Under the pieces are notes generated by a model. It did not search any database. It was not told the DNA's origin and saw only the letters and a program-made list of their open reading frames with translations. From Thermoanaerobaculia bacterium (lineage in GTDB: Bacteria > Acidobacteriota > Thermoanaerobaculia > Gp7-AA8): DNA of 64,000 nucleotides. Position 1 is the stretch's first letter, and the number at the start of each line of letters is the position of its first letter. The stretch covers positions 92,936 through 156,935 of the forward strand of contig JBBRTB010000005.1 in assembly GCA_038244815.1 (NCBI GenBank), given 5' to 3'. Made by a program: the position numbers and the translations under genes. Shown in pieces: positions 1 through 60,368 of the stretch.

Positions 1-2028
1 CTTCCGCTCCAGGCGCGCGGGAAGAACGAGTCGTATATCTCGTACGACGATGGTGGGACGGTCGTCCGTCAGGGCGACGACAACCAGCGCGAGATCGACG
101 GGCGCGTGAACCTGCCTGTCTTTCCGGGAGACGAAGTGATCACGAACCGCCGCGGACGCGCCGAAGTGCGTCTCGCTGACGGTAATGTCGTCGGGATCGA
201 CCGGGCCACGTCAATTCTCTTCCGCTCGGTTCTCGACAGCTACGACACGGAGTCGGACGGCACGATCGCCGAGCTCCGCTATGGCAAGGTAGCCGTTCTC
301 CGCACCGGCGATGCCAGCCAGTCATTCCGTCTCGATACGCCCAGCGCAAGCTACTTTGCAGGCAACGAGGCCATCTTCTCCGTGGAGATGGATACGCGCG
401 GCCGGGACCATCTGACCGTGTTCGACGGGCCGGTGGAAGTGCGAACTCCCGCACGCACGTCGCGCGTCCGTTCGGGTGAGACGGCGGACGTCGACGACCG
501 TGGGCTCTACAACCTTGCCAGCGACGGGCAGCCCTCCGCTGATGAGTTCGAGCGCTGGTTCCTGCAGCGCAGCGAGAAGTACAGCAACTCGAACAGCCGC
601 TACCTCGATCGATCGCTGGCGTACTCGGATGAAGATCTTTCGTCGCACGGCACGTGGTCGCTCATCGGAGGCTACGGCTGGGGATGGCGTCCTTCCGTCG
701 GCGCTGGCTGGCGTCCGTACTACAACGGGCAATGGGTCACCGGTCCGTCGGGCTGCCTGACCTGGGCGTCCTACGAGCCGTGGGGATGGGTGCCGTATCA
801 CTACGGCCGATGGGCCTATGACCCGATCTACGGCTGGTTCTGGCTGCCCGGCTCGGCGTATTCGCCCGCCTGGGTGTACTGGATGTACAGCCCCGGCTAC
901 ATCGGCTGGGCTCCGGCCGGCTGGTACGACTGCTACCGGCCGTATTACGACTGGGCCTATCGCCCCTATGCACGCGCGGGATTCGACTTCGGATTCGGGT
1001 TCTATGGACGCGTGCACGTCAATGAGATCGATTTGCGTCCGTGGACGTTCATCAACGCGAATGCGATCGTGTCCGGCCGCGTCGACCGGGCCGCCATCGC
1101 CATCGACATCGTGCGCGCCCGTCTGACGCGCGCCCCCGCGGACCTGGCGACGATTTCCGGCTCACCGGCCCGTTTCGGCCGCAACGATCTGCGCGATCCG
1201 GCCGGCGCGGTGAATGAGATCTATCGCCGCGGTCTCACCGGTGCGACCGGCCAGGTCATACCGGCGACCGATATGACACCGTTCTTCCGGCGTGATGCGG
1301 AGCTTCCTGGCGCCATCCGCGAGCGCATCATCCGCACGCGTCCGGTGGAAGGCACCGTGACGCGTGGCGGCCTGTCGCCGTCAGCGGGAGGAAGCATCGC
1401 GCCGATCGGCACCGGCAGCCTTGCCCCGATCGGAAGGGGAAGCGTCGCACCCATCGGCAGCGGCAGTCCCGCTCCGACGACTGGCGGCACGATTCACCGC
1501 GGTGACGGCGGCAGCGGCACGACGCCCCGGCCCGACAACGGCGGCCGTGTCAATCGCGGCACGCGGTCCTTCGTTCCACCACCGGTATGGCGCAACAGGC
1601 TTACGCCCGTGACGCCCGAGAACGGCAGTTCCACGACCGCGCCGGCTCCCGAAGGAGCTCCAGTGCCTCAGGAGCGTTGGCGCGGCCGGATCGTTCCGCG
1701 CGAGCAGGGAGGGAGCACCGGTTCCCCGCCGGAGCCGGCGGCTGCCACTCCGGGCGGACGCTCGCGCTCGGTCGATCGGGGCAGCAGCAGTGACGTTCCG
1801 CGCCGCGTAATCGACGGGATCGGCGGAACGCGGATCTACCGGGGGGCGGGAGAGCGTCCGGCTCCGCCCCCGCGGGCTCCCGAGGCTCGTCCCCCGGCAC
1901 GCGAGTCTGCACCCCCGCCGGAGCATCACGCTGCGCCACCGCCGGAGCATCACTCTGCGCCCCCGCCGGAGCATCACGACAGCGGCAGCCGCTCCGGTGG
2001 CGGCCGTGTGCACCGCGACAAGAACTGA
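1..2028 (+). CDS. FecR-domain protein (5'-truncated by window edge) with Trp/Tyr-rich central segment and Pro/Gly-rich repetitive C-terminus
   Basis: Frame 1 is open from base 1 with no upstream stop. The N-terminal section (GDEVITNRRGRAEVRLADGNVVGIDRATSILFRS...ELRYGKVAVLRTGD) resembles a FecR domain. Residues around 200-300 are W/Y/G-rich (WGW, YGW, PGY). The C-terminus has SIAPIGTG and APPPEHH repeats. A rho-independent terminator follows. Confidence 0.7.
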   Translation, partial: LPLQARGKNESYISYDDGGTVVRQGDDNQREIDGRVNLPVFPGDEVITNRRGRAEVRLADGNVVGIDRATSILFRSVLDSYDTESDGTIAELRYGKVAVLRTGDASQSFRLDTPSASYFAGNEAIFSVEMDTRGRDHLTVFDGPVEVRTPARTSRVRSGETADVDDRGLYNLASDGQPSADEFERWFLQRSEKYSNSNSRYLDRSLAYSDEDLSSHGTWSLIGGYGWGWRPSVGAGWRPYYNGQWVTGPSGCLTWASYEPWGWVPYHYGRWAYDPIYGWFWLPGSAYSPAWVYWMYSPGYIGWAPAGWYDCYRPYYDWAYRPYARAGFDFGFGFYGRVHVNEIDLRPWTFINANAIVSGRVDRAAIAIDIVRARLTRAPADLATISGSPARFGRNDLRDPAGAVNEIYRRGLTGATGQVIPATDMTPFFRRDAELPGAIRERIIRTRPVEGTVTRGGLSPSAGGSIAPIGTGSLAPIGRGSVAPIGSGSPAPTTGGTIHRGDGGSGTTPRPDNGGRVNRGTRSFVPPPVWRNRLTPVTPENGSSTTAPAPEGAPVPQERWRGRIVPREQGGSTGSPPEPAAATPGGRSRSVDRGSSSDVPRRVIDGIGGTRIYRGAGERPAPPPRAPEARPPARESAPPPEHHAAPPPEHHSAPPPEHHDSGSRSGGGRVHRDKN
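1393..1476 (+). repeat. in-frame 24-bp tandem repeat (about 3.5 units; S-I/L/V-A-P-I-G-x-G) inside FecR-like CDS
   Basis: Direct reading: agcatcgcgccgatcggcaccggc / agccttgccccgatcggaagggga / agcgtcgcacccatcggcagcggc / agtcccgctccg. Confidence 0.8.
1919..1990 (+). repeat. in-frame 3 x 24-bp tandem repeat encoding APPPEHH(A/S/D) at the C-terminus of the FecR-like CDS
   Basis: gcacccccgccggagcatcacgct / gcgccaccgccggagcatcactct / gcgcccccgccggagcatcacgac. Confidence 0.85.
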
Positions 2029-2032
2029 CAAA

Positions 2033-2058
2033 AGGGCCTCTCCGGAGGCCCTTTTCAC
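2033..2058 (+). terminator. rho-independent terminator (agggcctc-tccg-gaggccct followed by tttcac)
   Basis: Perfect 8-bp stem with a 4-nt loop and T-rich tail, 5 nt after the stop of the FecR-like gene. Confidence 0.65.
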
Positions 2059-2094
2059 TCTCGATTCTGCATTCTGGATTCGTAAGTCATCATT

Positions 2095-2100
2095 CATAAT
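2095..2100 (+). promoter_or_regulatory. -10-like hexamer CATAAT 6 nt upstream of the ATG at 2107 (possible leaderless transcript)
   Basis: cattcataat caccgg atg. No Shine-Dalgarno sequence. This geometry recurs at other genes in the window. Confidence 0.3.
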
Positions 2101-2106
2101 CACCGG

Positions 2107-2349
2107 ATGTCGGTCCCGCTCTTCTTTGCGCTCTACTACCTGGAGGCGGGACTTTTTCTCACGGTGATCCCCTGGACCCGCATCTGGACGCTGAACCCGC
2201 TCCTGCATTGGCACGTGGCAGTGGGCTTGTGGGCCGATAATCCCTTCGTGCGTGGATTCGTATCGGGGATCGGCGTGATGCACATTCTCATCGCCGTGAG
2301 AGATATCGTGGTCATCAGCCGCGGCCGCCGTGGGGGCGCCACCGGATGA
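2107..2349 (+). CDS. small hydrophobic membrane protein (80 aa), hypothetical
   Basis: ORF with two clear hydrophobic segments (LFFALYYLEAGLFLTVIPW, VSGIGVMHILIAV). Its end overlaps the start of the MscS gene at 2346, suggesting coupling. Confidence 0.45.
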   Translation: MSVPLFFALYYLEAGLFLTVIPWTRIWTLNPLLHWHVAVGLWADNPFVRGFVSGIGVMHILIAVRDIVVISRGRRGGATG

Positions 2350-3746
2350 AGCGCACCCGCTCGCGCTATTTCTATCCGCTCTTCGTCAGCGCGGTGCTTT
2401 TCGCGCTGTATTACACCGCCCTGAAGTCGTTCGATCCGGACCTCGAGCAGGTTTTCGGACAGAACTTCCACGGCCTGCTGTTCGCCGCGTTCATCCCGCT
2501 GGTTTTGCTGGCCGGCCGGCTGATCGATGCCGTTGTCTTCGATCTGTTTCTCTCGCAGCAGCGTCGCAAGGCCGCCCCGCGCCTGCTGCGCGACGTTGTG
2601 GCGCTCATCATCTACTTCATTCTTTTCTCGATCGCGGCAGTCAGGATTTTCGGCTCTTCGTTCACCAGCCTCTTCACCGCCGGCACCGTCGTCGCCGCCA
2701 TCCTCGGTCTGGCCCTGCAGGAGACCCTGGGGAACCTCTTTTCAGGCATCGCCCTGCACATGGAGGACAGTTTCGCTGTCGGTGACGTGGTGAAGTCGGG
2801 CGACGCCATCGGAGTGGTGCAGGGCGTGACCTGGCGGGCCACCCGGCTGCGCGCGTTCAACAACAACGTGATCATCCTGCCCAACTCGATCATCGCACGC
2901 GACCGCCTGGAGGTGTTTCCGCGCGATCATCTCAACGCCCGCGTGCTGCAGATCGGCGTCGACTACAACGTTCCTCCGGCCACCGTGATCAACGTCCTTA
3001 CACAGGCCGCCGCTCATGTCGACGGAGTGACGCGCGAAATGCCCTGCCTGGCCCGTGTGGGAGCCTTCGGCGATTCCGCCGTTGTGTATGAGGTCAAGTA
3101 CTTCACCCGCGACTACTCCGCGCGTGATCGCATCGACGCCGACGTGCGCAAGGCCGTCTGGTACGCCCTGCGCCGCAACAACATCTCCATCCCCTTTCCC
3201 ATCCGCTCGATTCAGCAATACGAGGCGCCCCGCCATGACCAGCACGACGTCGGGACCGAGGACGTCCGCCGGCGCCTGCAGCGCGTCGACTTCCTGGAGC
3301 CTCTGCCGGAGCCGGCGCAGGAAGCGCTCGTGGAAGCGGCGCGCGTCTGCTTTTATTCGCGCGGCGAGACGATCATCCGGATCGGCAGCGCCGGTGAATC
3401 GATGTTCATCGTCCACGATGGCACCGTGTCCGTGCGCATCCCCGACGACACCGCGGCGGGACGCCACGAAGTCGCCCAGCTCGGTCCGGGAAGCGTGTTC
3501 GGCGAGATGGCTCTGCTCACCGGCGAAGCACGCACCGCCAACGTCATCGCCCTCACCGACGTTACCGCCATCGAGATCACGAAGTCGGCGTTGCAGCCGA
3601 TCCTGCAGAGCCATCCCGAGATCATGCGGGTGATCTCATCGAAGGTCACCGAACGGCGGCTGCGGTTGAGCGAGCTCAAGGCCGCCGACGTGGAAGAGGA
3701 AGAGATGACGCTGGTGACCCGGATCCGTTCCTACTTTGGTCTGTGA
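2346..3746 (+). CDS. mechanosensitive ion channel (MscS family) fused to a C-terminal cyclic-nucleotide-binding domain
   Basis: N-terminal TM helices; MscS core motif (GNLFSGIALHMEDSFAVGDVV...GVVQGVTWRATRLRAFNNNVIILPNSII). C-terminal cNMP-binding fold (GETIIRIGSAGESMFIVHDGTVSV...FGEMALLTGEARTANVIAL). Confidence 0.85.
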   Translation: MKRTRSRYFYPLFVSAVLFALYYTALKSFDPDLEQVFGQNFHGLLFAAFIPLVLLAGRLIDAVVFDLFLSQQRRKAAPRLLRDVVALIIYFILFSIAAVRIFGSSFTSLFTAGTVVAAILGLALQETLGNLFSGIALHMEDSFAVGDVVKSGDAIGVVQGVTWRATRLRAFNNNVIILPNSIIARDRLEVFPRDHLNARVLQIGVDYNVPPATVINVLTQAAAHVDGVTREMPCLARVGAFGDSAVVYEVKYFTRDYSARDRIDADVRKAVWYALRRNNISIPFPIRSIQQYEAPRHDQHDVGTEDVRRRLQRVDFLEPLPEPAQEALVEAARVCFYSRGETIIRIGSAGESMFIVHDGTVSVRIPDDTAAGRHEVAQLGPGSVFGEMALLTGEARTANVIALTDVTAIEITKSALQPILQSHPEIMRVISSKVTERRLRLSELKAADVEEEEMTLVTRIRSYFGL

Positions 3747-5134
3747 TGAAGCGACTGCTGATCGTCGAAGACAAGGAATCGCTCGGTCTGATGCTGCGCG
3801 AGACGGTGGAAGCCGAAGGCTTCGAGGCCGAGATCGCCTCGACCGGAGCGCTGGCCACGCGCTGGCTGGCCGAGGGACGGCGCTATGTGGCGGTGCTGAC
3901 CGACCTGCGCCTGCCCGGCGCCGACGGCATCGCGGTGCTCAAGCAGGCCAGAGAAGCCGACGCCGATTGTCCGGTCATCGTCATGACGGCGTTCGCCACG
4001 ATCGAGAATGCCGTGGAGGCCATGAAGCTCGGCGCGCACGACTTCATCCAGAAGCCCATCGACGTCGATTACCTGCTCCTGCTGCTGCGCCGCTGCCGTG
4101 ACGAGCGCGCCATGCGCTCCGAGAACCTGTTGCTCAGGGACGAGTTCCAGAAGCGATACCGGCTGCCGGCGATCGTCGGGGAGTCGCCGCGCATCGTGGA
4201 GGTGTCGCAGGCAGTCCAGAAAGTGGCCGGCACCGACTCGACGGTGCTGCTGCAGGGAGAATCGGGAACGGGGAAAGAGCTGTTTGCGCGCGCCATCCAT
4301 CAACTGTCGGCCCGGGCGGAGCGGCCGTTCGTGGCCATCAACTGCGCCGCCATTCCCGACACGCTGATCGAGAACGAGCTGTTCGGCCACGAGAAGGGCT
4401 CGTTCACGGGTGCCACCGGACGCCAGCTCGGAAAATTCGAGCTCGCCGATACCGGAACGATCTTTCTCGACGAGATCGCCGAGCTCGGACAGCCCGTGCA
4501 GTCCAAGCTCCTGCGCGTCATTCAGGAACGGCGTTTCGAGCGCATCGGCGGCGGACCGACCCTGGAAGTCGACGTGCGCATCATCTGCGCCACGAATCGC
4601 AATCTGGCGGACGACGTGAAGCAGGGGAGGTTCCGCGAGGATCTGTTCTTCCGCGTGAACGTCTTCCCGATCATCGTCCCGCCTCTGCGGGCACGGCGGG
4701 AGGACATCGACGCGCTCACCGACTTCTTCGTCGTGCGCTTCGCCCGCGAGCTTAACAAACCGCAGTTGCGGGTCGACGACGACGCCCGTGCCCTGATGCG
4801 TGCGTACGACTGGCCGGGCAACATCCGCGAACTGCAGAACTGCATCGAACGCGCGGCCATCCTCTGTGACCGCAGCACCATCAAGCCGGCGGATCTGCAC
4901 ATCCCGGCTGCGGCGGTTCCCACCTCACTCGGTGAGGCCATCGATCTGTCGGGAACGCTGGGCGACGCGGTCGGACGCGCCACGGCCGCGGTCGAGCGCA
5001 TCAAGATCTCCGAAGCCCTGAAGCGCTTCCCCTCTCGCACCGAAGCATCCGAGCGCCTCGGCATTTCGGCGCGCACGCTGCAATCGAAGATCAAGGAGCT
5101 CGGAATCGATGACCGACAGGATCCCGACGTCTAA
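3746..5134 (+). CDS. sigma54-dependent response regulator (NtrC/AtoC family: REC + AAA+ + HTH)
   Basis: Receiver domain (LIVEDKESL...DLRLPGADG), sigma54-interaction Walker A GESGTGKELFARAIH, ESELFGHEKGSFTGA motif, C-terminal Fis-type HTH. The ATG at 3746 overlaps the MscS stop (GTGATGA). Confidence 0.9.
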   Translation: MKRLLIVEDKESLGLMLRETVEAEGFEAEIASTGALATRWLAEGRRYVAVLTDLRLPGADGIAVLKQAREADADCPVIVMTAFATIENAVEAMKLGAHDFIQKPIDVDYLLLLLRRCRDERAMRSENLLLRDEFQKRYRLPAIVGESPRIVEVSQAVQKVAGTDSTVLLQGESGTGKELFARAIHQLSARAERPFVAINCAAIPDTLIENELFGHEKGSFTGATGRQLGKFELADTGTIFLDEIAELGQPVQSKLLRVIQERRFERIGGGPTLEVDVRIICATNRNLADDVKQGRFREDLFFRVNVFPIIVPPLRARREDIDALTDFFVVRFARELNKPQLRVDDDARALMRAYDWPGNIRELQNCIERAAILCDRSTIKPADLHIPAAAVPTSLGEAIDLSGTLGDAVGRATAAVERIKISEALKRFPSRTEASERLGISARTLQSKIKELGIDDRQDPDV

Positions 5135-5342
5135 AGACGTCGTGGCGTGGCTCAACGCACGCTTCGAAGCGCGCAATCTGCCGTACCGCCTCGAGCACAT
5201 CGCCGTCCTGCCCTATGTCAATCCCATGTGGCTCGCCAACTGGGACGTGCCGCAGCTCGCAGACGCCCCCGAGCGCGACGTCATCGACGAGGAGATCCGC
5301 GATGCCAGATGGAAGTTTCCGCAGGTGATGGAGGAGTATTGA
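5109..5342 (+). CDS. hypothetical small protein (77 aa)
   Basis: Non-repetitive ORF overlapping the NtrC 3' end by 26 nt. No recognisable family. Confidence 0.3.
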   Translation: MTDRIPTSKDVVAWLNARFEARNLPYRLEHIAVLPYVNPMWLANWDVPQLADAPERDVIDEEIRDARWKFPQVMEEY

Positions 5343-5345
5343 ATC

Positions 5346-5527
5346 GGGTCGCTGGGTCGCTGGGTCGCTGGGTCGCTGGGTCGCTGGGTCGCCGGGTTGC
5401 CGGGTTGCCGGGTTGCCGGCTCCTAGCCGAGCACCGAGCACCGAGCACCGTCCGTTCCACCGCCCAGATTCCTCGCGCTCTTCGGCGTTCGGAATGACGC
5501 GGCCGGGCGGCCGAGCACCGAGCACCG
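5346..5527. repeat. intergenic short-tandem-repeat block: (GGGTCGCT)x4.6, (GCCGGGTT)x3, (GAGCACC)x3, then (CCGAGCAC)x2
   Basis: Read directly from the sequence, between convergent genes. The heptamers produce a spurious 116-aa ORF (5147..5497). Confidence 0.85.
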
Positions 5528-5530
5528 CGC

Positions 5531-6958
5531 CTAGTGCTCGAGACTCTTCAACACCCTGGCCCGGTACTCCTTCGCCTTTGCGATTACGGCGGGCACGTCC
5601 ACGGTCAGCAGTTTGTGGTCGCGCATCAGAATCTTTCCGTCGCAGATCGTCGTGACGACGGAGTTTCCCGACGCGGCGTAGACGATCGCCGACTCCACGG
5701 AGTACACCGGTTGCGTCCTGGGCTGATTGAAATCGATGATGGCGATGTCGGCGCGCTTGCCCGGTTCGAGCGAGCCGATCTTGTCAGCCATGTTCAGGGC
5801 CCGCGCCCCACCGATCGTGGCGAAGCCGAGGACCTCGCGCGCGCTGAGTGCCTTCGGGTCCATGCGCGTGATCTTCTGCAGCCGCGCCGCGCTGGCCATC
5901 TCCTCGATCATGTCCAGATCGTTGTTCGATCCGGCCGGGCCGTCGGTGCCCAGACCGATGTCGACGCCGGCCCGCTGCATCTGGATGATCGGCGCTACCC
6001 CTGAGGCCAGCATCATGTTGCTCTCAGGGCAGTGCACGACGCCGACTTTGCGTGCCGCAAACATCTGGATCTCGTCGGGGGTGAGCCACACGCCGTGCGC
6101 GGCCACGACGTCGTCGCCCAGGAAGCCGATCGATTCGAGGTAGGTACCTGGCGTCATGCCGTTGGCCCGCTGGGCGATCTGACGCAGTTCGTCTTTCGTC
6201 TCCGAGACATGGATGAGGATCGGCACTCCCAGCTCCGTGGCCAGCTTGCGCACCTGCTGCAGATGCTCCCGCGACACCGTGAACGGTGCATGCGGAGCCA
6301 GCGCGGGGGTGATGAGGCGATCGCCCTTCCATTGCTTCACATACTTCCGCACATAGGCCACGGCATCGTCCCAGGTCTTGTTGTCGGGAGCGGGGAAATC
6401 GATCATGGTCTCGCCGGCCACGGCCCGCAGGCCGGCGGCTTTGGTCTCGCGGGCGATGTCCGACTCGTAGTAATACATGTCCGCGAATGTCGTCGTGCCG
6501 GAGCGGATCATCTCCGCCGCGGCCAGCCGCGTTCCCCACTTCACGAACTCCCGCGACACGTTCTTGGCCTCGGCCGGAAAGATGTAGTTGTTCAGCCAGT
6601 CCATGAGGTCGCGGTCGTCGGCGATGCCGCGGAACAGCGTCATCGGCACATGCGTGTGCGCGTTTACGAAGCCGGGGAGGACGGCCATGCCCTTCGCGTT
6701 GATGGTGGTCTTCGCGGTAAACCGCTTGGCGATGTCGGAGGCTTTGCCGACCGCGGCGATGTCGTGACCGACGATCGCCACCGCACCGTCCTCGATATTC
6801 GGGCCGGCCATGGTGATGACCGTACCGCCGGTGATCACGATGTCGGCCTGGCGGGCGAACGCCCCCGACGCCACAAGGAGAATGGCGGCCACGATTGCAA
6901 ATCTGCGCAAGATCACTCCTCGGTTGAATGAAAACGGATGAGGGAACAGTGTCGGCAC
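5531..6958 (-). CDS. secreted amidohydrolase (MtaD / atrazine-chlorohydrolase / guanine-deaminase superfamily)
   Basis: Signal peptide, then metal-binding HxH (GFVNAHTHVPMT) and downstream HVSE and HCPESN motifs typical of the amidohydrolase_1 fold. GTG start. Confidence 0.85.
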   Translation of the reverse strand: MPTLFPHPFSFNRGVILRRFAIVAAILLVASGAFARQADIVITGGTVITMAGPNIEDGAVAIVGHDIAAVGKASDIAKRFTAKTTINAKGMAVLPGFVNAHTHVPMTLFRGIADDRDLMDWLNNYIFPAEAKNVSREFVKWGTRLAAAEMIRSGTTTFADMYYYESDIARETKAAGLRAVAGETMIDFPAPDNKTWDDAVAYVRKYVKQWKGDRLITPALAPHAPFTVSREHLQQVRKLATELGVPILIHVSETKDELRQIAQRANGMTPGTYLESIGFLGDDVVAAHGVWLTPDEIQMFAARKVGVVHCPESNMMLASGVAPIIQMQRAGVDIGLGTDGPAGSNNDLDMIEEMASAARLQKITRMDPKALSAREVLGFATIGGARALNMADKIGSLEPGKRADIAIIDFNQPRTQPVYSVESAIVYAASGNSVVTTICDGKILMRDHKLLTVDVPAVIAKAKEYRARVLKSLEH

Positions 6959-6961
6959 ATT

Positions 6962-7411
6962 CTATCGTGGCGTCACGCGGCGCGGTCGCTGCTTCGCGGA
7001 AACCGACTTGATGATCAGCCGCCGCGGGCCGGCCATCGGTTTCTCCGACTGTCCCACGGCGCCCGCAATCAGATCCTCGACCTCGGGCTCGTCGAGGTGA
7101 TCGGCCGACGTCAGCCGCACGTGCCGCACGAGTTTTCCGGATCCCTGCAGCAGCCGGTGGGGATCCCGTAGTGTTGCGCCGTGGAGAAAGCAGAGCGTGA
7201 CGTGCTCCGGGAGCAGCAGCAGCGACAGGATCGCCTCGGATGGCCGTTCCGTCGGTCCGAATCCGATGACCAGGCCGTTCCAGTTGTCGTAGACAAGTTC
7301 CACCGCTCCGGGCAGCCGCTTGCGCATCTTGCGCAGCATCGCCCTGGCCGACTTTGCCAGCGCCGGCGTGTACTTCGCCATGAAGGCGTCGAGCTGCTGC
7401 TGCGGAGTCAT
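6962..7411 (-). CDS. DUF1801 (YdhG-like) domain protein, 149 aa
   Basis: The C-terminal 149 codons of a long antisense ORF match the DUF1801 pattern ([47 protein letters not shown]...[31 protein letters not shown]). The ATG is at 7411. The rest of ORF 6962..8683 is antisense to tyrS and was rejected. Confidence 0.65.
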
Positions 7412-7440
7412 GTTTTCGAGATTCGAGATCCTCAGAAGTC

Positions 7441-7446
7441 TACAAT
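7441..7446 (+). promoter_or_regulatory. -10-like hexamer TACAAT immediately upstream of the tyrS start (leaderless or near-leaderless)
   Basis: tctacaat gccgcctcgc atg. In-frame ATGs at 7445 and 7457. Confidence 0.3.
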
Positions 7447-8659
7447 GCCGCCTCGCATGACACCGGACCAGGAATTCGATTACCTCGCCAAGGGAACGGT
7501 CGACCTGATCGAGAAGGGCGATCTCAAGGCGAAGCTGGCGCGCGCGAAGCGTGATGGCAAACCGCTCACCATCAAAGTGGGTTTCGATCCCACCGCTCCG
7601 GACATCCACCTCGGGCATACCGTGGTGATCCGGAAGATGAAGCACTTCCAGCAGCTCGGCCATCGCGTCGTCTTTCTCATCGGCGACTTCACCGGGATGA
7701 TCGGCGATCCGACCGGAAAGAAGGCCACCCGGCCGCCGCTGACGCGCGAGCAGATCGAGGAGAACGCACACACGTACGAACGCCAGGTGTTCAAGGTTCT
7801 CGATCCCGCCAAGACCGAAGTGCGCTTCAACTCCGAGTGGCTGAGTGCCCTCGGCGCGGAGGGGATGGTGCGACTGGCGGCGAAGTACACGCTGGCCCGG
7901 ATCCTCGAGCGCGACGACTTCCGCAAGCGCTTCCAGGCCAATCAGCCCATCGCCATCCACGAGTTGCTCTACCCGCTGGCGCAGGCATACGACTCCGTGG
8001 CCCTCAAGTGCGACGTGGAGATGGGCGGGACCGATCAGCTCTTCAACCTGCTGGTCGGCCGCGACCTGATGCGCGAGTACGGCCTGGAGCCGCAGGTGGT
8101 CATCACCATGCCGCTGCTCGAAGGCACCGACGGTGTCGAGAAGATGTCGAAGTCCCTCGGCAACTACATCGGCATCGACGAAGCGCCGGGACAGATCTTC
8201 GGCAAGATCATGTCGATCTCCGATGAGCTGATGTGGAAGTACTACACGCTCTGCACCGACCTCACACCAGACCAGATCACAGCGAAGAGGGCGTCCGATC
8301 ATCCGATGGACGCGAAGCGCGAGCTGGCCAAGTCGATCATTCGCGATTTCTACGACGAAGCGGCCGCCGATTCGGCCGAGCAGGAGTTCCGGCGCGTGTT
8401 CAGCGAGCGCCAGGCACCGGCCGACATCGAGGAGAAGGAGTTGACCGCGTCGGATGATCCGCAGCTGGTGAGCAAAGTGCTCACAGCGGCGGGACTGGCG
8501 CCGACGAACAAAGAGGCCCAGCGGCTGATCGCGCAGGGCGGCGTGCTGGTCGATGGTGTGAAGGTGGAGAACCTCAGGCAGACTCTCGACGCCTCTCGCG
8601 GAAAGTCCTATCTCCTCAAGGTGGGGAAGCGCCGGTTCGGAAGAGTGACGTTTACGTAG
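7445..8659 (+). CDS. tyrS: tyrosine--tRNA ligase
   Basis: Class I HIGH motif (PDIHLGH), KMSKS motif (KMSKSLGN), C-terminal S4-like RNA-binding domain. The start may instead be the ATG at 7457. Confidence 0.9.
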
Positions 8660-8666
8660 CGGGTTG

Positions 8667-8771
8667 CCTGTTCGCTGGGTCACTGGGTCACTGGGTCGCT
8701 GCTAACTGCTAACCGCTAACCGGTAACCAGTAACCGGGCTACCGGGCAACCCGGCAACCCGGCAACCTGTT
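8667..8771. repeat. intergenic short-tandem-repeat block: (CTGGGTCR)x3, (CTAACYG)x3, (GTAACCR)x2, (GGCAACCC)x3
   Basis: Read directly, between the convergent tyrS and secreted-protein genes. Shares GGGTCGCT and GGCAACCC/GGGTTGCC units with the block at 5346..5527. Confidence 0.85.
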
Positions 8772-8772
8772 C

Positions 8773-9825
8773 TCAGTAGAAGCGCAGAGGAATCGTCAGG
8801 ATCGTCGACAGTCCGTCCGCGGTGGTGGCCCGAACCTGAAGCTGTCCGGTTTTGCCGGCCAGTGCGGCACTGGCGACCATCTGGATCGTTCCGTTCTGGT
8901 CGATGAGGCGGGCGTCGGCCGGCGACGACACGATCTCGTACGTGACCGGCTCCTCGGTGACGAGGCGGAAGTAGGTCGGGAAGCCGAGGGTATAGGCGTC
9001 GACCGAAGAGTCGAGCACGTTGTCGTGTGCGGCGATGTCGATCGTTCCGTTCTCGTCACGGTCCACGCCCAGGAGGTTGACGTTGGCCTGCTGCCGCGTG
9101 CGGATGCCGGGGACGAACGACGGGTCGCCGCTGGCGTTGTTGATGATGCTGCCGTAGAAGATGGCGCTCCCGCTGAGCACGTTGGCGTGGATGACGTCGT
9201 CGTTCTCCAGCGCTCCCAGGAGGGCGGGCACGCTGTACTGGTTCTGCACGCCCGCGTTGTAGGAGATGGTCCGAGTGGCGGCCACGGTCCCATCGGCGCG
9301 AACGAGGTCCCACTTCACATTCGTGGCGTCGAGCGTGTAGAGGCCGGCGTTGAAGCGCGAGGTGGAAGCGTTGTCCGGGCCGGCGATGACGGCCACGTCA
9401 CCGGTGCTGATGGCGTCGGTGGAGCGAATGGCCGGGATGTCCTGGCCGAACTCCTGGTCGCCGAGGACGTTGGAGGTACGGGAGGTGATGGCCAGGCGAT
9501 TGAGATCCGGGTCGGCCATGTCGATCTCGATTGCGCCGACGCTGCCTTCACGCTGGAACCGCGTGCGCACGATGTCGTCGATGGAGATGGTGTGCCGTGC
9601 CGGCACGGTGACCGTGGCGCTCCCGGCCGCTCCATTCTGGTCGTGGTAGACGAGGCTGACGTTGATATCGCGGTTGGCGGTGTTGTGCAGCGTCAGCTCG
9701 CTCTGCCACATGCTGCCATTCGCGCCGGTCGCCGAGCCCGCCGCGGGGACGATGAGGGTGGCCGCTCCGGCGGTGAGCGGCAGCAGCGCCAGGGACGCGG
9801 CGGTGATCAGATTTCTGAACTTCAT
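8773..9825 (-). CDS. secreted hypothetical protein (350 aa) with signal peptide
   Basis: ATG at 9825 preceded by a GGAG ribosome-binding site (aaaaaggagaaaccc atg). Signal peptide MKFRNLITAASLALLPLTAGAA. No recognised domain. Confidence 0.6.
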   Translation of the reverse strand: MKFRNLITAASLALLPLTAGAATLIVPAAGSATGANGSMWQSELTLHNTANRDINVSLVYHDQNGAAGSATVTVPARHTISIDDIVRTRFQREGSVGAIEIDMADPDLNRLAITSRTSNVLGDQEFGQDIPAIRSTDAISTGDVAVIAGPDNASTSRFNAGLYTLDATNVKWDLVRADGTVAATRTISYNAGVQNQYSVPALLGALENDDVIHANVLSGSAIFYGSIINNASGDPSFVPGIRTRQQANVNLLGVDRDENGTIDIAAHDNVLDSSVDAYTLGFPTYFRLVTEEPVTYEIVSSPADARLIDQNGTIQMVASAALAGKTGQLQVRATTADGLSTILTIPLRFY

Positions 9826-10011
9826 GGGTTTCTCCTTTTTCGAATCGCTGTTGCTGGGGTCTGATACGCGCGACCGAAAAAGAATGTCTATAAAATATGT
9901 TGTTAAAGCATCACAAGAACGAGTGATGGACGGATGGGTTTCGTCTCTTGATACGGCTGTGACGGGCGGGGCGTCCATGGCACGTGCCGATCAAGTACAC
10001 TCCCGCGCGCG

Positions 10012-11139
10012 ATGGCCGTTCCTCTGCTCGATCTGAAACTGCAGTACGCCACGATCCGCGACCAGGTCATGCGCGTGACCGAGGAAGTCTACGAGTCGCA
10101 GATGTTCATCCTCGGAAAGCGCGTGGACACCTTCGAGCGTGATTTCGCCGCGTATTGCAGCGCGAAACATGCCGTCGGCGTTTCCTCCGGTACCGATGCG
10201 TTGCTCGTCGCGCTCATGGTCCACGGGATCGGAGCGGGCGACGAAGTGATCGTCCCGGCGTATTCATTCTTTGCCACGGCCGGTGTGGTGGCGCGGCTGG
10301 GGGCCCAACCCGTGTTCGTCGACATCGCGCTCGACGACTACAACATCGATCCGGCGCTCATCGAGGCCAGGATCACGCCGCGAACCAAAGCGATCATGCC
10401 GGTGCACCTGTACGGGCAGACCGCGGCGATGGACGAGATCAACGGGATCGCCCGCAAGCACAAACTGCTCGTGGTCGAGGACGCGGCGCAGGCCATCGGC
10501 GCGGAATACGCGGGCAGGCGTGCCGGCGCCCTGGGCGACATCGGTTGCTTTTCGTTTTTCCCATCGAAGAATCTTGGCGCGTTCGGCGACGCCGGTGCGG
10601 TCACGGTCGAAGACGACGCGGTGTACGAGCGGCTCGTCGACTTCCGGGTGCACGGGATGCGGCCGAAGTATTACCACCGCTACGTCGGCGGCAACTTCCG
10701 CATCGACGCGCTGCAGGCGGCAGTGCTGCACGTGAAGCTTCCGTACCTCGACAGTTGGGCGGCGGGGCGGCGGCGCAACGCCAAGGTCTACGACGGGCTG
10801 TTCGCGGAGGCAAACCTCGGGGAGCGGATCGTGCTCCCGAATGAGCTTCCCCGGCGGCATCACATCTACAACCAGTACATCATCCGCTTCACGGAAGGCC
10901 GGGCCAGGCGCGATGGCGTGATGGAACACCTGCGAAGCGCCGGCATCGGCTGCGAGATCTACTATCCGCTGACGCTGCCGCAGCAGGAATGCTTCCAGTC
11001 GCTCGCGGGCGCACGCGAGCGCTACCCCAATTCTGAGGCGGCCGCGGAGCAGACGCTGGCCATTCCCGTGTTTGCCGAACTGACCATCGATCAGATGCGC
11101 GAAGTGGTTCGCGAGATCGGGAAAGGACTCGGGTCGTAG
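10012..11139 (+). CDS. DegT/DnrJ/EryC1/StrS-family PLP-dependent sugar aminotransferase
   Basis: Full-length family match, including a PLP-binding lysine region (FSFFPSKNLGAFGDAGAV) and an N-terminal QVMRV...ESQMFILG segment. Confidence 0.85.
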   Translation: MAVPLLDLKLQYATIRDQVMRVTEEVYESQMFILGKRVDTFERDFAAYCSAKHAVGVSSGTDALLVALMVHGIGAGDEVIVPAYSFFATAGVVARLGAQPVFVDIALDDYNIDPALIEARITPRTKAIMPVHLYGQTAAMDEINGIARKHKLLVVEDAAQAIGAEYAGRRAGALGDIGCFSFFPSKNLGAFGDAGAVTVEDDAVYERLVDFRVHGMRPKYYHRYVGGNFRIDALQAAVLHVKLPYLDSWAAGRRRNAKVYDGLFAEANLGERIVLPNELPRRHHIYNQYIIRFTEGRARRDGVMEHLRSAGIGCEIYYPLTLPQQECFQSLAGARERYPNSEAAAEQTLAIPVFAELTIDQMREVVREIGKGLGS

Positions 11140-11212
11140 GTCGTCGGTCGTGGGTCACGGGGGCTGCGAAGAGGCCCCAGGACCCGCGACCCGCGACCGG
11201 CGACCGCGAAGC
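11131..11212. repeat. intergenic heptamer arrays (GGTCGNN)x3 and (GACCSSC)x4 arranged as a long imperfect inverted repeat around a central ggggc...gcccc hairpin
   Basis: gggtcgtaggtcgtcggtcgtgggtcac gggggctgcgaagaggcccc aggacccgcgacccgcgaccggcgaccgcg. The arms are approximate reverse complements. Confidence 0.7.
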
Positions 11213-11905
11213 ATGATCCCCCTCCGCCAGACCTGGCCGCGCCGCACCACTCCGCTGGTCAACCGCGCTCTCGTTGCCGCCAACGTGGCCGTGTTCATCG
11301 GGCAATTGTTCATGGGCAGCTCGGCGGAGCGGTTCATCGAGACGTTCGGATACATCCCGGTTCGATTTCTCCATCCCCAGCTCTTCGGGTATTCGCCGTT
11401 GGAAGGTGCGCTGACGCTGGTGACGTCGCTGTTCATCCATGGCGGACTCGTTCACCTGTTCGGCAACATGATCTACCTGTGGGTGTTCGGTGAAGCGGTC
11501 GAGGACGCGCTGGGGCATGCGCCGTATCTGCTGTTCTTCGTTGCCGCGGGCGTGATCGGCAGCCTCGCGCACACGATCGTCTTCCCGCGTTCTGCCATCG
11601 CCTCGATCGGAGCTTCGGGCAGCATCGCCGGCGTCCTGGGCGTGTTTCTGGTGCTTCGCCCGCGTGCCCGGATCGTCACGCTCTTTCCACTCGTGATTTA
11701 CTGGGCGATGCTGGAGATCCGCGCGGCGCTGTTTCTGCCGGTGTGGTTCCTCATGCAGTTCTTCAACGGTTTTCTGTCGCTGGCCGCGGCGCGCGGAACG
11801 CAGGAGGTCGCCGGGATCGCGTGGTGGGCGCACATCGGCGGGTTTGTGTTCGGCGCGACGGTCGCGGCGGTTCACCGCATCATGGCCACGAAGGAGCAGG
11901 AATGA
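11213..11905 (+). CDS. rhomboid-family intramembrane serine protease
   Basis: Six-TM topology, catalytic GASGSIAG serine motif and downstream AHIGG histidine. Its stop overlaps the rfbA start (ATGA). Confidence 0.85.
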
Positions 11906-12768
11906 GAAAGGGGATCATCCTCGCCGGCGGCTCGGGCACGCGCCTCTATCCGCTGACCTCGGTCATGTCGAAGCAGCTCCTGCCTGTCTACGACAAGCCG
12001 ATGATCTATTACCCGCTGACGACGCTCATGCTCGCCGGCATCAACGACGTGCTCATCATCACCACGCCCGCGGACCAGCCGCTTTTCCGCCAGCTCCTGG
12101 GCGACGGATCGCAGTGGGGAATCCGCCTGACGTACGCGGAGCAACCGAGTCCCGGCGGGCTGGCCCAGGCGTTTCTCATCGGCCGCGACTTCGTGGGCGG
12201 CAATCCCAGCTGCCTGATCCTCGGCGACAACATCTATTACGGCCATGGATTGACCGAGGCGTTGCGGCGGGCTTCGGCGTCCACCAGCGGCGCGACCGTG
12301 TTTGCGTACCGCGTCAAAGACCCGGAGCGCTACGGAGTGGTGGAAGTCGACGGCAGCGGCCGTGCCGTCGGGATCGAAGAGAAGCCGGCGCGTCCGAAGT
12401 CGACGCTGGCCGTGACCGGGTTGTACTTCTACGACGCCAATGTCGTCGACTACGTGACGAAGATCAAGCCCTCGGCGCGCGGCGAGCTGGAGATCACGGA
12501 TTTGAACCGCCTCTATCTCGAGCGCGGCACCCTGCACGTCGAGCAGCTCGGACGCGGGTACGCCTGGTTCGATACGGGAACGCAGGAGTCGCTGCTCGAG
12601 GCCGCGAACTTCGTCGAGACCATCGAGCTGCGGCAGGGGCTGAAAGTGGCCTGTCCCGAGGAGGTGGCCTACTTTCTCGACTGGATCACGCGCGAGCAGT
12701 TGCTCGAGCAGGCCGGGCGCCTCGCCAAGAGCGCCTATGGCCAGTATCTTCTCGGTATCGCGCAATGA
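11902..12768 (+). CDS. rfbA: glucose-1-phosphate thymidylyltransferase
   Basis: [19 protein letters not shown]...[16 protein letters not shown] and the remainder of the RmlA signature. ATG at 11902. Confidence 0.9.
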
Positions 12769-13670
12769 AGACGGTCCTGGTGACGGGCGGCGCGGGATTC
12801 ATCGGGTCGCACCTCGTCGATGCGTATCTGCAGCGCGGATGGCGTGTGGTCGTGGTCGATGATCTCTCCACCGGTCAAACGCGCAATCTCGATGAGAAGG
12901 CGGAACTGCATGCCATCGACATCCGCGAAGCCGGGCCGCTGATCGCGCAGGTCAAGCCCGATCTGGTCAGTCATCACGCTGCCCAGATCGACGTGCGGAA
13001 GTCCGTCGCCGATCCTGCCGGCGACGCGGAGGTCAACGTCGTCGGATCGCTTCGCCTTCTGCAGGCCTGTGTCGAAGCGGGGGTGAAGCGTTTCGTCTTC
13101 GCGTCGAGCGGAGGAGCGGCTTACGGCGAACCGCTCTTCGCACCGCAGACCGAGGAGCATCCCCTGCGTCCGATGTCTCCGTACGGATGTGCGAAGGTGG
13201 CCGTCGAGTACTACATGAGCGCGTTTCGCGAAACGCATGGCCTCTCGACCGTCGCGCTGCGCTACGGGAACGTCTACGGTCCGCGGCAGAGCAGTCTGGG
13301 CGAAGCAGGAGTGATCGCGATCTTCGCCGATCGCATGTTGCGCGGGCTGCCCGTCACCATCAACGGAACCGGCGGGCAGACGCGCGACTACGTCTATGTC
13401 GGCGACGTGGTGGCCGCGAACATGGCCGTCACCGACCGCGAAGACCTCAGCGGCGCGTTCAACGTCGGCACGGGCATCGAGACGTCGGTCAACGAGCTCT
13501 ACTCGATGCTGTCTTCTATCCTGGGCGTAGAGACGCCCGCTCGACACGGCCCGGCGAAGGCGGGAGAGCAGATGCGCAGCGTGCTGGATGGCTCGAGGTT
13601 ACGCGGACAAACCCGCTTGCCAGAGCCCGCCAGGCTCAATGAGGCGCTGCGATCGACGTTCGCGACGTAG
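12765..13670 (+). CDS. NAD-dependent epimerase/dehydratase (GalE-like UDP-sugar 4-epimerase)
   Basis: GGAGFIGSH Rossmann motif, YxxxK (YGCAKVAVE). The start overlaps the rfbA stop (ATGA). Confidence 0.8.
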
Positions 13671-13892
13671 TGGCCGTGTGGCATGCCCGATGAACTCGGG
13701 CTTCGCGGATGATCCGATCCTTCCCGCGTACGCGCCGTCTACATCAACGAGCTGCGTGCGGCGCTTGACGATGCCAGAGGTGCTCTCGGATTCCCGACCG
13801 GGCGGCTACACGGACACACTCGCCGCGGGCATGCCGGTCAAGACCGAGCACCTCCCGGAAATCCGCAATCGGGTGAAGTAGACTGCCCACGC

Positions 13893-14628: not shown

Positions 14629-14706
14629 GTTCATCTCCACGACGATACAGGCGTTCTTCATCTGGCAAGTCGTGCTGACGCTGTAGAGCCGCTGGTACGC
14701 TGCCGA

Positions 14707-17082: not shown

Positions 17083-17250
17083 GATGCGGTTACCCCCGGG
17101 AACAGGTTTCCCATGTCTTGGAGCTCCATTTTCGGGCCGGATTGAACAAGAGTATAACGCCGCCCGCCCATTCCCCGGCGTGTGAGAGGGATCACCTCGG
17201 AGGGAGGTGGTGGGCCGAGGCTGACAATCTCATTGCAACCCATGGGGATC

Positions 17251-17278
17251 TTGAACCGGGGGCGCGCTGGCGTATACT
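17251..17278 (+). promoter_or_regulatory. sigma70-type promoter candidate (-35 TTGAAC, 16-nt spacer, -10 TATACT) for the gene at 17361
   Basis: ttgaac cgggggcgcgctggcg tatact. It is about 80 nt upstream of a start codon that has a GGAG ribosome-binding site. Confidence 0.4.
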
Positions 17279-17360
17279 GGTGGCTCTCAACCGAGCAAGG
17301 ATATTTTAAGGTGGCTTCCGGCAAGGTCCGGGAAGGTTGGTTTTCAACCAGGAGATTGAA

Positions 17361-18395: not shown

Positions 18396-18413
18396 AACAG
18401 AACGACCGTACGT

Positions 18414-57114: not shown

Positions 57115-58514
57115 GCGACGTCCTCGATCTCCCGTTTACGGAGGCGCGCGAGCAGGTGTCGCCGGCCGAGTATCTGGCTGAGTCGCTGCGTGCCATCGAA
57201 CGGCAGAATGCCGCGCTCAACGCGTTTTTGCGTGTCAGCGACTCCCCGCGCGGCGCATTTCCCCTGGCCGTCAAGGACAACATCGTGACCACGGAGATGC
57301 CGACGACCTGCGCATCCCGCATTCTGGAATCGTTCCGGTCGCCGTTCGACGCCACCGTCATTGCCAGGTTGCGCGCGGCCGGCGCAGGCATCGTGGGCAA
57401 GACCAACCTCGACGAGTTCGCCATGGGCTCGTCGACGGAGCACTCTGCGTTCGGTCCGACACGCAATCCGTGGGATACCACCCGCGTGGCCGGCGGCTCC
57501 TCCGGCGGCTCCGCCGCCGCGGTGGCGGCGCGCATGGTCCCGGCGGCCCTCGGATCGGACACGGGCGGCTCGGTGCGACAGCCGGCCGCGCTCTGCGGCG
57601 TCGTCGGCGTCAAGCCGACCTATGGGCGCGTGAGCCGGTACGGCCTCGTGGCGTTCGCCTCGAGCCTCGATCAGATCGGCACATTCACGAAGACGGTGGG
57701 CGAGAGTGCCGAGCTCCTGGGAGTGATCGCCGGCCGCGATCCGTTCGATTCGACCTCGAGCGCGGAGCCGGTCGACGACTACGTCGCCGATCTCGAGCGC
57801 GGAGTGCGCGGCCTGCGCGTCGGCGTGATCTCCGAGGGTCTCGACAAGCTGAGCGCCGAGGTCCGCCGCAACTTCGATGATGCCGCCGGAGTGTTTCGCC
57901 GCGGCGGTGCGGTTGTCGACGACGTCCACGTTCCTTCGATCACGCATTCGATCGCCATCTACTACGTCGTGGCGAACGCCGAGGCCAGTGCGAACCTGGC
58001 CAGGTTCGACGGGATCCGGTACGGAAGACGTGCGGCGGCCGGCGGTCACACCTCGCTTCAGGAGACCTACTTCGCGTCGCGCGGGGAAGGGTTCGGGGCG
58101 GAAGTGAAGCGCAGGATCATGCTCGGCACGTTCGCGCTGTCCTCGGGCTATTACGACGCGTACTACGGACGCGCGCAGCGCGTCCGGCAGAAGCTGCGCG
58201 ACGAGCTCGCCGAGGCATTTCGCACTCACGACGTGCTGCTCACCCCGACCTCACCCGAACCGGCCTTTCGGATCGGCGAGAAGGTCGACGATCCGCTGAC
58301 GATGTACCTCAATGACATCTTCACGGCGCCGGCGAATCTGGCCGGGGTTCCGGCGATGTCGGTTCCGTCCGGGTTCACCGCCGAAGGAATGCCGCTGGGT
58401 TTGCAGATCACCGCTCCGCACTTCGGCGAGCGCGTGATGTTCCGTGCCGGCGCATTCTTCGAGAAGGAAACGGGGTACTGGAAACGCAGGCCTCGGGCCT
58501 CGGACCGGCGATGA
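57111..58514 (+). CDS. gatA: Asp-tRNA(Asn)/Glu-tRNA(Gln) amidotransferase subunit A
   Basis: Amidase signature GGSSGGSAAAVAA...GSDTGGSVRQPAA. GTG start overlapping the gatC stop. Confidence 0.9.
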   Translation: MSDVLDLPFTEAREQVSPAEYLAESLRAIERQNAALNAFLRVSDSPRGAFPLAVKDNIVTTEMPTTCASRILESFRSPFDATVIARLRAAGAGIVGKTNLDEFAMGSSTEHSAFGPTRNPWDTTRVAGGSSGGSAAAVAARMVPAALGSDTGGSVRQPAALCGVVGVKPTYGRVSRYGLVAFASSLDQIGTFTKTVGESAELLGVIAGRDPFDSTSSAEPVDDYVADLERGVRGLRVGVISEGLDKLSAEVRRNFDDAAGVFRRGGAVVDDVHVPSITHSIAIYYVVANAEASANLARFDGIRYGRRAAAGGHTSLQETYFASRGEGFGAEVKRRIMLGTFALSSGYYDAYYGRAQRVRQKLRDELAEAFRTHDVLLTPTSPEPAFRIGEKVDDPLTMYLNDIFTAPANLAGVPAMSVPSGFTAEGMPLGLQITAPHFGERVMFRAGAFFEKETGYWKRRPRASDRR

Positions 58515-58518
58515 GATC

Positions 58519-58559
58519 AGGCCTGAGGCCTGAGGCCTGAGGCCCGGCCGGGCGGGCGG
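58519..58559. repeat. intergenic tandem heptamer (AGGCCTG)x3 followed by a GC-rich ggcccggccgggcgggcgg tract
   Basis: Read directly, downstream of the gatA stop. Confidence 0.8.
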
Positions 58560-60321: not shown

Positions 60322-60368
60322 GGGGTCGCGACCTGCGACCTCCACGACCCGCGACCTCCCACGCGACA
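60322..60368. repeat. intergenic CGCGACC-type heptamer repeats including the palindrome ggtcgcgacc
   Basis: gggggtcgcgacc tgcgacc tccacgacc cgcgacc tcccacgcgacacc. Confidence 0.8.

Follow-up and report, generated by a model that had tools for sequence, protein, structure and literature searches.

Among long simple sequence repeats (SSRs), heptanucleotides are described as the most abundant class in many bacteria, and it has been proposed that slippage is favoured by a polymerase-contact length of about 7 nt, as the work of Mrazek (2007) is summarised in PMC4679880. In a later survey, repeats of the long SSR class LSSR(5-11) are concentrated in the intergenic DNA of free-living bacteria with large genomes, and Acidobacteria (4 genera), with a score of 0.00 for the 7n3 pattern, count as normally represented (Huang and Mrazek 2014, PMC4060949). 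It has been reported that heptameric SSRs, with the unit GGGAATC in Xanthomonas and GGGGAYT in Nostoc, are about 90% intergenic, differ in length between related species and in many cases form "convergent" inverted pairs, 70–75 per genome (Rehm et al. 2015, PMC4692102); those of Xanthomonas are G-rich on the sense strand after stop codons and on the antisense strand before open reading frames (ORFs) (PMC4692102). Sets of TAACTGA repeats lie mostly just upstream of starts and are almost never inverted (169 direct, 1 indirect; PMC4679880). Arrays of 7–8-nt units are described here at five sites in a stretch of 64,000 nt (contig JBBRTB010000005.1, positions 92,936 to 156,935; hereafter the window, in whose coordinates all positions are given) from a soil Acidobacteriota that relatives of its tyrosyl-tRNA synthetase (TyrS), the best of them at 87–90% protein identity, place in the Thermoanaerobaculia; the species itself is absent from the collections searched. 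They belong to a known bacterial repeat class, from whose closest described members they differ in lineage, in having many units per genome, 8-mers and nested multi-unit palindromes, and in occupying divergent regions as often as others; literature searches on repeats of Thermoanaerobaculia and Acidobacteria found no earlier description. The five sites are probably long-unit SSRs driven by slippage, which arise and turn over in non-coding DNA and become palindromic through template switching.

Like the repeats of Xanthomonas and Nostoc, the arrays consist of tandem 7-nt units, are intergenic and form G-first convergent pairs. Unlike them, with their one dominant unit per genome, the G-quadruplex (G4) as a proposed property and under-representation between divergent ORFs, the present class has 152 distinct canonical units spread over the 333 arrays of relatives, includes 8-mers and some 9-mers, builds nested multi-unit palindromes, and has neither general G4 potential nor depletion per divergent region. 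In place of one G-tract unit per genome, the window holds at least eight different units, of which only (GGGTCGCT)n and (GGGTTGCC)n fit the motif G3N1-7 x4. The likeness to LSSR(5-11) lies in intergenic concentration, the predominance of heptamers and slippage as the proposed cause; as far as the excerpts of that literature go, its accounts hold no inverted or nested organisation, no polarity and no sharp 7-nt threshold. Tandem copies, an excess over chance and intergenic concentration, which mark that class, are all found here, together with copy-number variability in relatives. The cyanobacterial heptamer repeats (STRR; Calothrix/Anabaena) and the TAACTGA repeats are likewise intergenic tandem heptamers of variable copy number (PMC4679880), but have few fixed units and occur in different phyla (cyanobacteria, Beggiatoaceae, Bacteroidetes).

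Array detection in the window was based on Tandem Repeats Finder (TRF) and on the counting of exact runs. TRF found period-7/8 arrays at 5346–5413 (GGGTCGCT grading into GCCGGGTT, 8.5 copies), 5427–5450 and 5511–5527 in site 1; at 8675–8701, 8701–8736 and 8732–8767 in site 2; at 11132–11156 (GGTCGTN), opposing 11181–11209 (GACCCGC), in site 3; at 58519–58544 (AGGCCTG, 3.7 copies) in site 4; and, in degenerate form, at 60329–60359 in site 5. Copy numbers over the sites are 8.5, 3.4, 3.4, 5.1, 4.5, 3.6, 4.3 and 3.7, which reach the at least about three head-to-tail copies of a long SSR. There are four exact runs of about 2.4 copies or more at period 7 and four at period 8, where 200 simulations of the window under a first-order Markov model give 0.2 and 0.01, and all eight fall at the five sites named in the original prediction, at each of which TRF also detects an array, so that these sites are real period-7/8 arrays; exact runs of periods 5 and 6 in the window are no more frequent than the Markov expectation. 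According to a gene map of the window made from codon bias with a crude home-made caller, the 6.7 kb of intergenic DNA contain eight period-7/8 arrays and the 57 kb of coding DNA none. The sharing of GGGTCGCT between sites 1 and 2 is borne out, with the copy at site 2 starting at 8693 and not where it had been placed (8677 and 8685 carry GGGTCACT); similarly, GGGTTGCC is present in site 1 but starts at 5394.

Short tandem repeats can be mis-assembled, and two genes adjoining sites 1 and 3 have no exact product match in the public collection, as might be seen if the arrays were artefacts of assembly or sequencing. Against this, a second assembly from raw reads, a contig of the Logan assembly of SRR19962014, is 100% identical to window 59237–61128, site 5 included; equivalent arrays occur in about 100 independent assemblies from many studies, among them megabase-scale contigs and two records labelled chromosome or complete genome; and the arrays respect gene boundaries. 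Because of the identical independent contig at site 5 and the equivalent arrays in many independent assemblies, an artefact is extremely unlikely, and it is the sole rival explanation excluded outright.

The occurrence of the arrays across the lineage was assessed in two censuses. The first applied TRF and the crude gene caller to the window and 69 Thermoanaerobaculia TyrS neighbourhoods (1.13 Mb) and gave:

Period 7: 102 intergenic arrays (0.85/kb), 22 in "coding" DNA (0.022/kb).
Period 8: 46 intergenic arrays (~0.38/kb), 11 in "coding" DNA.
Period 9: 16 intergenic arrays, 41 in "coding" DNA.

Intergenic periods 5, 6, 10 and 11 are nearly empty, and the intergenic density of period-7/8 arrays is 35–40 times the coding density. 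The second census took the 217 kb of intergenic DNA from about 150 non-redundant loci and set its exact tandem duplicates against shuffles, the observed/shuffled ratios being:

Periods 4, 5 and 6: 1.1x, 1.3x and 1.7x.
Periods 7, 8, 9 and 10: 17x, 19x, 29x and 13x.

The excess of tandem duplicates switches on sharply at 7 nt and continues in longer units. Raw duplicate counts drop about 4-fold with each extra base, as expected if births are chance duplications, and heptamers would owe their dominance simply to being the shortest units that pass the threshold. Heptamer arrays were also found in more distant Acidobacteriota loci (L070–L080; related loci are referred to by such numbers), and with heptameric SSRs described in other phyla and the same class present across the Thermoanaerobaculia, the repeats cannot be called genome-specific, as had been supposed.

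Turnover is visible among closely related loci. L100 and L109, which are 97% identical over 20 kb, have all sites in common and differ by a single extra CCGACAA unit, that is, by exactly one 7-nt unit, in line with the slippage suggested by the original prediction. One slot compared at about 93% identity holds CGGTTAT/TCGGGAG/GACAACC in L018, GGTTATC and GGTTGCGCGGTCTCGG in L100, and AGAAACC/TTCTGGT in L026. A 158-nt nested palindrome lies between a divergent gene and the TACAAT box of TyrS in L018, L100 and L056, and L026 cleanly lacks the entire palindrome upstream of TyrS. Between L095 and L111, all three copies on both arms have changed together from CACAGAG/CTCTGTG to CACAAAG/CTTTGTG, a concerted and compensatory change. 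The copy-number variability is that of relatives (L100/L109, L018/L100), not of the window's own species: exact look-ups for a same-species strain with TyrS (two start variants), the DegT-family aminotransferase and the 77-aa ORF beside site 1 gave no match, that with RibH returned the identical contig, and the best TyrS relatives in genome and metagenome collections are only 88–90% identical.

The slippage reading can be set out as a series of steps. An array would be born when 7 nt or more are duplicated in tandem, by chance or locally, the seed at site 3 being the last codons and stop of the upstream gene; any such duplicate would be unstable, which agrees with the proposed polymerase-contact length, and would expand and contract by slipped-strand mispairing, and the spread of mutated units would yield composite or graded arrays such as sites 1 and 2. 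Intramolecular template switching, i.e., fold-back copying of an array that may already be composite, would then add a reverse-complement arm and produce simple or nested palindromes (sites 2, 3 and 4); this step is suggested by the nested symmetric orders, the correlation of arm copy numbers (rho 0.51), the short loops and the concerted compensatory change. Whole palindromes would be lost by deletion in the end. Frame-breaking units would be purged from genes, which would leave the arrays gathered in short gaps and hence adjacent to stops; they would be nearly neutral, with no conserved site-specific function, and termination would not be what maintains them. At site 3, the C-terminus of the DegT-family protein reads GKGLGS* in the window and GKGLGR* in relatives, the first GGTCGTA unit being the native gene end, which argues for local birth over insertion.

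The anatomy of the five sites and their neighbours, from the gene map and a Pfam scan of the ten site-flanking genes, is as follows:

Site 1, array A, 5346..5393, G-rich on the + strand: GGGTCGCT about 6 times, beginning 3 nt past the stop of a 77-aa ORF (5109–5342); fits a G3N5 quadruplex motif.
Site 1, array B, 5391..5419: GCCGGGTT (GGGTTGCC) x3.6, continuous with array A, giving a composite direct array.
Site 1, array C, 5427..5450: CCGAGCA x3.4.
Site 1, unique segment, 5451..5510: 60 nt, non-repeated, splitting the CCGAGCA array; small hairpin ATTCC..GCGCT CTTC GGCGT..GGAAT with no T-run after it.
Site 1, array D, 5511..5527: CCGAGCA x2.4, ending 3 nt short of the convergent amidohydrolase stop (5531–5533); G-rich on the amidohydrolase sense strand.
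Site 1, neighbours: the 77-aa ORF (no Pfam hit) left and an amidohydrolase right, convergent.
Site 2, 5' arm, 8660..8700: CGGGTTGCC, then GGGTCACT x2, then GGGTCGCT; begins directly after the TyrS stop (8657–8659).
Site 2, centre, 8701..8736: GCTAACY/GGTAACC heptamers, about 5; near-palindrome ACCGGT at the hairpin tip.
Site 2, 3' arm, 8732..8772: GGCTACC, then GGCAACCC x3; abuts the stop of the convergent gene 8773–9825.
Site 2, neighbours: TyrS left and a secreted protein (no Pfam hit) right, convergent.
Site 3, 5' arm, 11131..11156: GGTCGTN, about 3.6 copies; the first unit is the last codons and TAG stop of the DegT-family aminotransferase gene.
Site 3, apical hairpin, 11157..11180: GGGG CTGCGAAGAGG CCCC.
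Site 3, 3' arm, 11181..11209: GACCCGC, about 4.3 copies; the rhomboid gene starts at 11213.
Site 3, neighbours: DegT-family aminotransferase left and rhomboid protease right, co-directional.
Site 4, 5' arm, 58487..58506: CAGGCCTCGGGCCTCGGACC, within the last codons of the upstream Amidase-family (GatA-like) gene.
Site 4, 3' arm, 58519..58544: AGGCCTG x3.7; 85% complementary to 58487–58506.
Site 4, neighbours: Amidase-family (GatA-like) protein left and cell-wall amidase right, co-directional.
Site 5, 60322..60368: degenerate CGCGACC/CGACCTCC units (TRF period 16 x1.9) and a short palindrome GGGGGTCGCGACC.
Site 5, neighbours: cell-wall amidase left, RibH and then probably NusB right, co-directional.

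The arms of site 2 pair over 35 nt and are 71% complementary. The flanking genes of all five sites are ordinary housekeeping neighbours. The 5451–5510 segment of site 1 is bordered on both sides by CCGAGCACCG and may represent either an insertion that duplicated its target or a remnant of older intergenic sequence. At site 4, the hairpin arm (58487–58514) encodes the nine terminal codons (RRPRASDRR*) of the Amidase-family gene, past the end of the Pfam Amidase domain at residue 441/467, and the repeat may have reshaped the C-terminal tail of this protein. In the slot between the DegT-family and rhomboid genes, L001 carries GGTCGTTAGTCGTT.../...GACTAACGAC arrays at ~13497–13560 with a GGTCGT core in common with site 3, which may be its diverged homologue; the same slot in L003 holds no array.

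About half of the array-bearing regions in relatives combine an array with its reverse complement, the nested order A-B-loop-B'-A' being frequent among these inverted pairs, whose median gap is 22 nt. The inverted arrangement expected in the window is present at sites 2, 3 and 4, weak at site 5 and absent from site 1. Of 88 inverted pairs, 77 carry more G than C in the 5' arm and more C than G in the 3' arm (p 2e-13); because an inverted repeat reads alike on both strands, this G-first polarity is strand-independent, and it is seen in every region type, co-directional (+ and −), divergent and convergent, as well as in 43 of 49 distinct units. The G+T-rich arm comes first in 62 pairs vs 26. Ordinary hairpins were considered as the source of the polarity and ruled out, the perfect hairpins of the same intergenic regions splitting 132:153. 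Unpaired arrays show the same geometry: on the + strand, 24 of 26 that lie in the left half of a region are G-rich, as opposed to 22 of 60 that lie in its right half (Fisher p 1e-6), and some of them may be pairs whose partner arm is too degenerate to detect. Sites 2 and 3 of the window obey the G-first rule, and at site 1 the sense strand of each flanking gene reads a G-rich array past its stop; the convergent layout of the Xanthomonas/Nostoc type, with the G-rich strand leaving the gene, is found at sites 1–3 and in those 77 pairs of the relatives.

Several of these observations weigh against slippage as the whole explanation. Plain slippage would not lead one to expect so strong a polarity of pairs, and unpaired arrays are polarised within intergenic regions as well. 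It can be speculated that polarity would follow if only G/T-rich nascent arrays self-pair through G-T wobble and prime fold-back. In addition, unit sharing (at most 1 mismatch), which is seen in 15.3% of site pairs within a genome vs 4.1% between genomes, figures inflated by orthologous sites, and a GGTY-core family that spans genera (GGTTGTC, GGTTATC, GGTTGCTG, GGTTGCGC and GGTCTCGC, with the window members GGGTCGCT, GGGTTGCC and GGTCGTN) are hints of copying between sites or of a sequence preference. Moreover, all related loci are TyrS neighbourhoods, in which many sites are orthologous and counts are not independent, and the gene calls of every census come from the crude home-made caller. 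A dedicated directional process with a 7-nt ruler, common to many bacteria that have heptamer repeats, would build polar nested palindromes with the G-rich strand running 5'->3' to the centre and away from the flanking genes, and would propagate units between sites; such a process seems improbable.

The recurrence of units within one genome can also be read in terms of small non-autonomous mobile elements, resembling repetitive extragenic palindromic (REP) sequences, bacterial interspersed mosaic elements (BIMEs) or MITEs (miniature transposable elements with inverted repeats), with tandem 7–8-mer ends and moved by some transposase. REP/BIME sequences are extragenic and palindromic, often lie after stops or between convergent genes and cluster in alternating orientation; REP units are conserved imperfect palindromes of 20–40 nt, present in hundreds of copies and tied to REP-associated tyrosine transposases (RAYTs). 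Besides the higher sharing within genomes, such elements would account for GGGTCGCT and GGGTTGCC at both sites 1 and 2 of the window, for GGTTGCGCGGTCTCG at three sites of L100, and for the clean presence or absence of a whole element in L018 vs L026; nesting could represent insertion into loops, and polarity a recognised end sequence. However, units are as diverse as stated above, and copies that share a unit differ in both loop and flanks; the L018/L026 junction shows no target-site duplication, loss in L026 being more parsimonious; site 3 is seeded by the adjacent gene's own codons; and none of the ten site-flanking genes, the only ones scanned with Pfam, is transposase-like. Unlike REP/BIME, only 7–8-nt head-to-tail units are common to the sites here, and no conserved longer unit was seen. 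As for MITE features, inverted ends are present, with no duplication at that junction and no conserved body, in TyrS neighbourhoods only. Mobile elements are quite unlikely as the source of the arrays. A dispersed palindrome of three CACAGAGR facing three YCTCTGTG (period 8–9) was observed at several non-orthologous positions in 14 of 160 loci, and was not found in the window; its positions include, among others:

L095: 2797–2847.
L111: 2799–2853.
L100: 17415–17451.
L044: 4406–4441 and 5741–5776.
L114: 9887–9923 and 11228–11263.

A single universal motif was ruled out as well, GGTT/AACC occurring in only about 19% of units, though GGTT is enriched 5.4-fold, a value that orthologous sites likewise inflate.

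The position of the arrays relative to genes bears on a role in RNA. In the window, the reported closeness to stop codons and the placement between convergent genes at two sites (1 and 2) both hold: the stops end at 5342, 8659, 11139, 58514 and 60321, and the arrays start 3, about 1–8, −8 (overlapping the stop), 5 and 1 nt on. As a defining property of the class, a location "usually just after stop codons" does not survive comparison, divergent regions being equally occupied in relatives: in about 150 related loci, the share of intergenic regions that hold an array is 21% for the co-directional, 18% for the convergent and 18% for the divergent (promoter-only) type, with densities of 1.08, 0.83 and 0.65 per kb, respectively, and inverted pairs occur in 23 of 49 array-bearing divergent regions, as frequently as in other region types. 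The median distance from an array edge in relatives is 9 nt to a stop codon and 31 nt to a start codon, as expected if arrays fill the space not needed for the promoter, and the proximity to stops would mostly arise because short intergenic regions get filled. A random distribution with respect to gene ends, named by the original prediction as grounds for abandoning it, is thus largely what region type shows, but not the contrast between intergenic and coding DNA or the polarity. Around TyrS, 16 of 126 loci have an array in the downstream slot and 27 of 129 have one in the upstream slot, built from many unrelated units; this occupancy is average for any intergenic region, so there is no positional conservation, and L001–L003, the closest relatives of the window, have no array downstream of TyrS.

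Meanwhile, several sites are predicted to fold strongly. The hairpin of site 3 reaches −63 kcal/mol (z −6.7) and the fold of site 2 −53 kcal/mol on the + strand and −58 kcal/mol on the − strand (z −2.4 and −4.7); site 4 folds with 58487–58506 (z −3.1), site 5 weakly (z −2.9) and site 1 not significantly (z −1.3). The arrays resemble Rho-independent terminators as GC-rich hairpins downstream of genes and differ from them in having no U-tract, in their 25–40-bp stems of repeats with periodic mismatches, and in occurring in promoter regions as well. Sequence inspection found no T-run after the hairpins at any of the five sites, and a terminator scan of 1–20000 flagged none of sites 1–3. Canonical terminators with a hairpin and T-run are present elsewhere in the window, at 2030–2060 (AAAAGGGCCTC..GAGGCCCTTTT) and at 18414–18444 (GAGACCCGCCGCC..GGCGGCGGGTCTTTCTGTTTT, between convergent genes), which indicates that the organism uses ordinary intrinsic terminators; canonical (Rho-independent) termination by the arrays is ruled out on these grounds. 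CRISPR was also ruled out, the units being 7–8 nt long and contiguous, with no spacers, and a search of the whole window with Rfam (gathering thresholds) and ARAGORN gave no Rfam family and no tRNA. The view that the repeats are neither CRISPR, nor REP, nor canonical terminators is upheld, as a conserved 20–40-nt unit is lacking too.

A functional RNA hairpin of another kind, i.e., a factor-independent or bidirectional terminator or a 3'-end stabiliser for the upstream gene, with tandem units giving register-tolerant stems, would fit the very stable folds of sites 2, 3 and 4, the window arrays starting a few nt from stops, two of them between convergent genes, the shorter median distance to stops in relatives, and the similar Xanthomonas repeats, which are close to stops and mostly transcribed (PMC4692102). 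This explanation is nonetheless unlikely: besides the missing T-tracts and the insignificant fold of site 1, divergent promoter regions hold arrays and inverted pairs as often as other regions do, orthologous slots are filled at the background rate only, and among 46 paired co-directional sites the sense RNA is the more stable in 23 and the antisense RNA in 23 (Wilcoxon p 0.98), with no sign of selection on a one-strand transcript. Judged from the DNA, region type and strand bias would argue against transcript ends at the arrays. As a side effect, the long GC-rich hairpins probably still influence read-through, RNA stability or promoter spacing.

It is also conceivable that the arrays act as binding sites or as regulatory structured DNA or RNA, through a G-quadruplex, through a cold-shock-type protein bound at each heptamer, or through variable promoter spacing (phase variation). 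The (GGGTCGCT)n and (GGGTTGCC)n arrays at 5346–5404 give two of only four canonical G3N1-7 x4 quadruplex motifs in the 64 kb, on the + strand directly after a stop; the heptamer repeats of Xanthomonas and Nostoc form G4 in vitro (PMC4692102), and CspB binds heptamer repeats (discussed in PMC4679880). Moreover, arrays often end just before TANNNT boxes 6–8 nt ahead of starts, and copy number varies between strains. However, the units are too diverse for one sequence-specific protein, most are without G-tracts, slot occupancy is not conserved, and the flanking genes are housekeeping rather than contingency genes, all of which makes a regulatory role very unlikely.

The boxes themselves are a wider feature of the window, where TANNNT sequences resembling −10 elements stand 6–10 nt before many start codons, with no Shine-Dalgarno sequence between:

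58564–58569: TACAAT, following the 3' arm of site 4, 6 nt before the GTG start at 58576.
60374–60379: TAGAAT, GTG start at 60386.
7441–7446: TACAAT, ATG start at 7457.
~2095: CATAAT (ATG at 2107).
~55197: TAGAAT (TTG at 55211).
~13879: TAGACT (TTG at 13893).

This layout suggests that many genes of the lineage may be transcribed as leaderless or near-leaderless mRNAs. The arrangement CTACAAT-N8-ATG also precedes TyrS in L018, L026, L056 and L100, and suggests that TyrS probably starts at 7457 rather than 7445. It was also observed that the G+C content of the window falls to 0.59–0.60 at ~20–28 kb, and that the gene caller placed no confident gene in 22308–24700 or 45834–46911.

Taken as individual loci, the window sites are ordinary members of their class that lie between housekeeping genes and give no sign of a specific function, and the regularities of the class are of more interest. 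For the annotation of metagenome-assembled genomes of Acidobacteriota, the arrays matter in that they yield spurious ORFs and may overlap real gene ends. Should the process with a 7-nt ruler be true, it would represent a new self-propagating non-coding element or structural DNA signal, and a polarity common to Xanthomonas (Gammaproteobacteria) and Acidobacteriota would point to a general rule behind the heptamer repeats (STRR) of cyanobacteria (Calothrix; cited in PMC4692102). For decades, heptamer repeats have been known from cyanobacteria, Xanthomonas, Beggiatoaceae, Chloroflexus and other bacteria, with no agreement on where they come from or what they do; the present lineage offers a richer natural experiment, with many units, a 7-nt threshold, nested palindromes, G-first polarity, and birth, concerted change and loss at 93–97% identity, and these regularities make the question "why heptamers?" testable in terms of a slippage threshold, fold-back copying and polarity.

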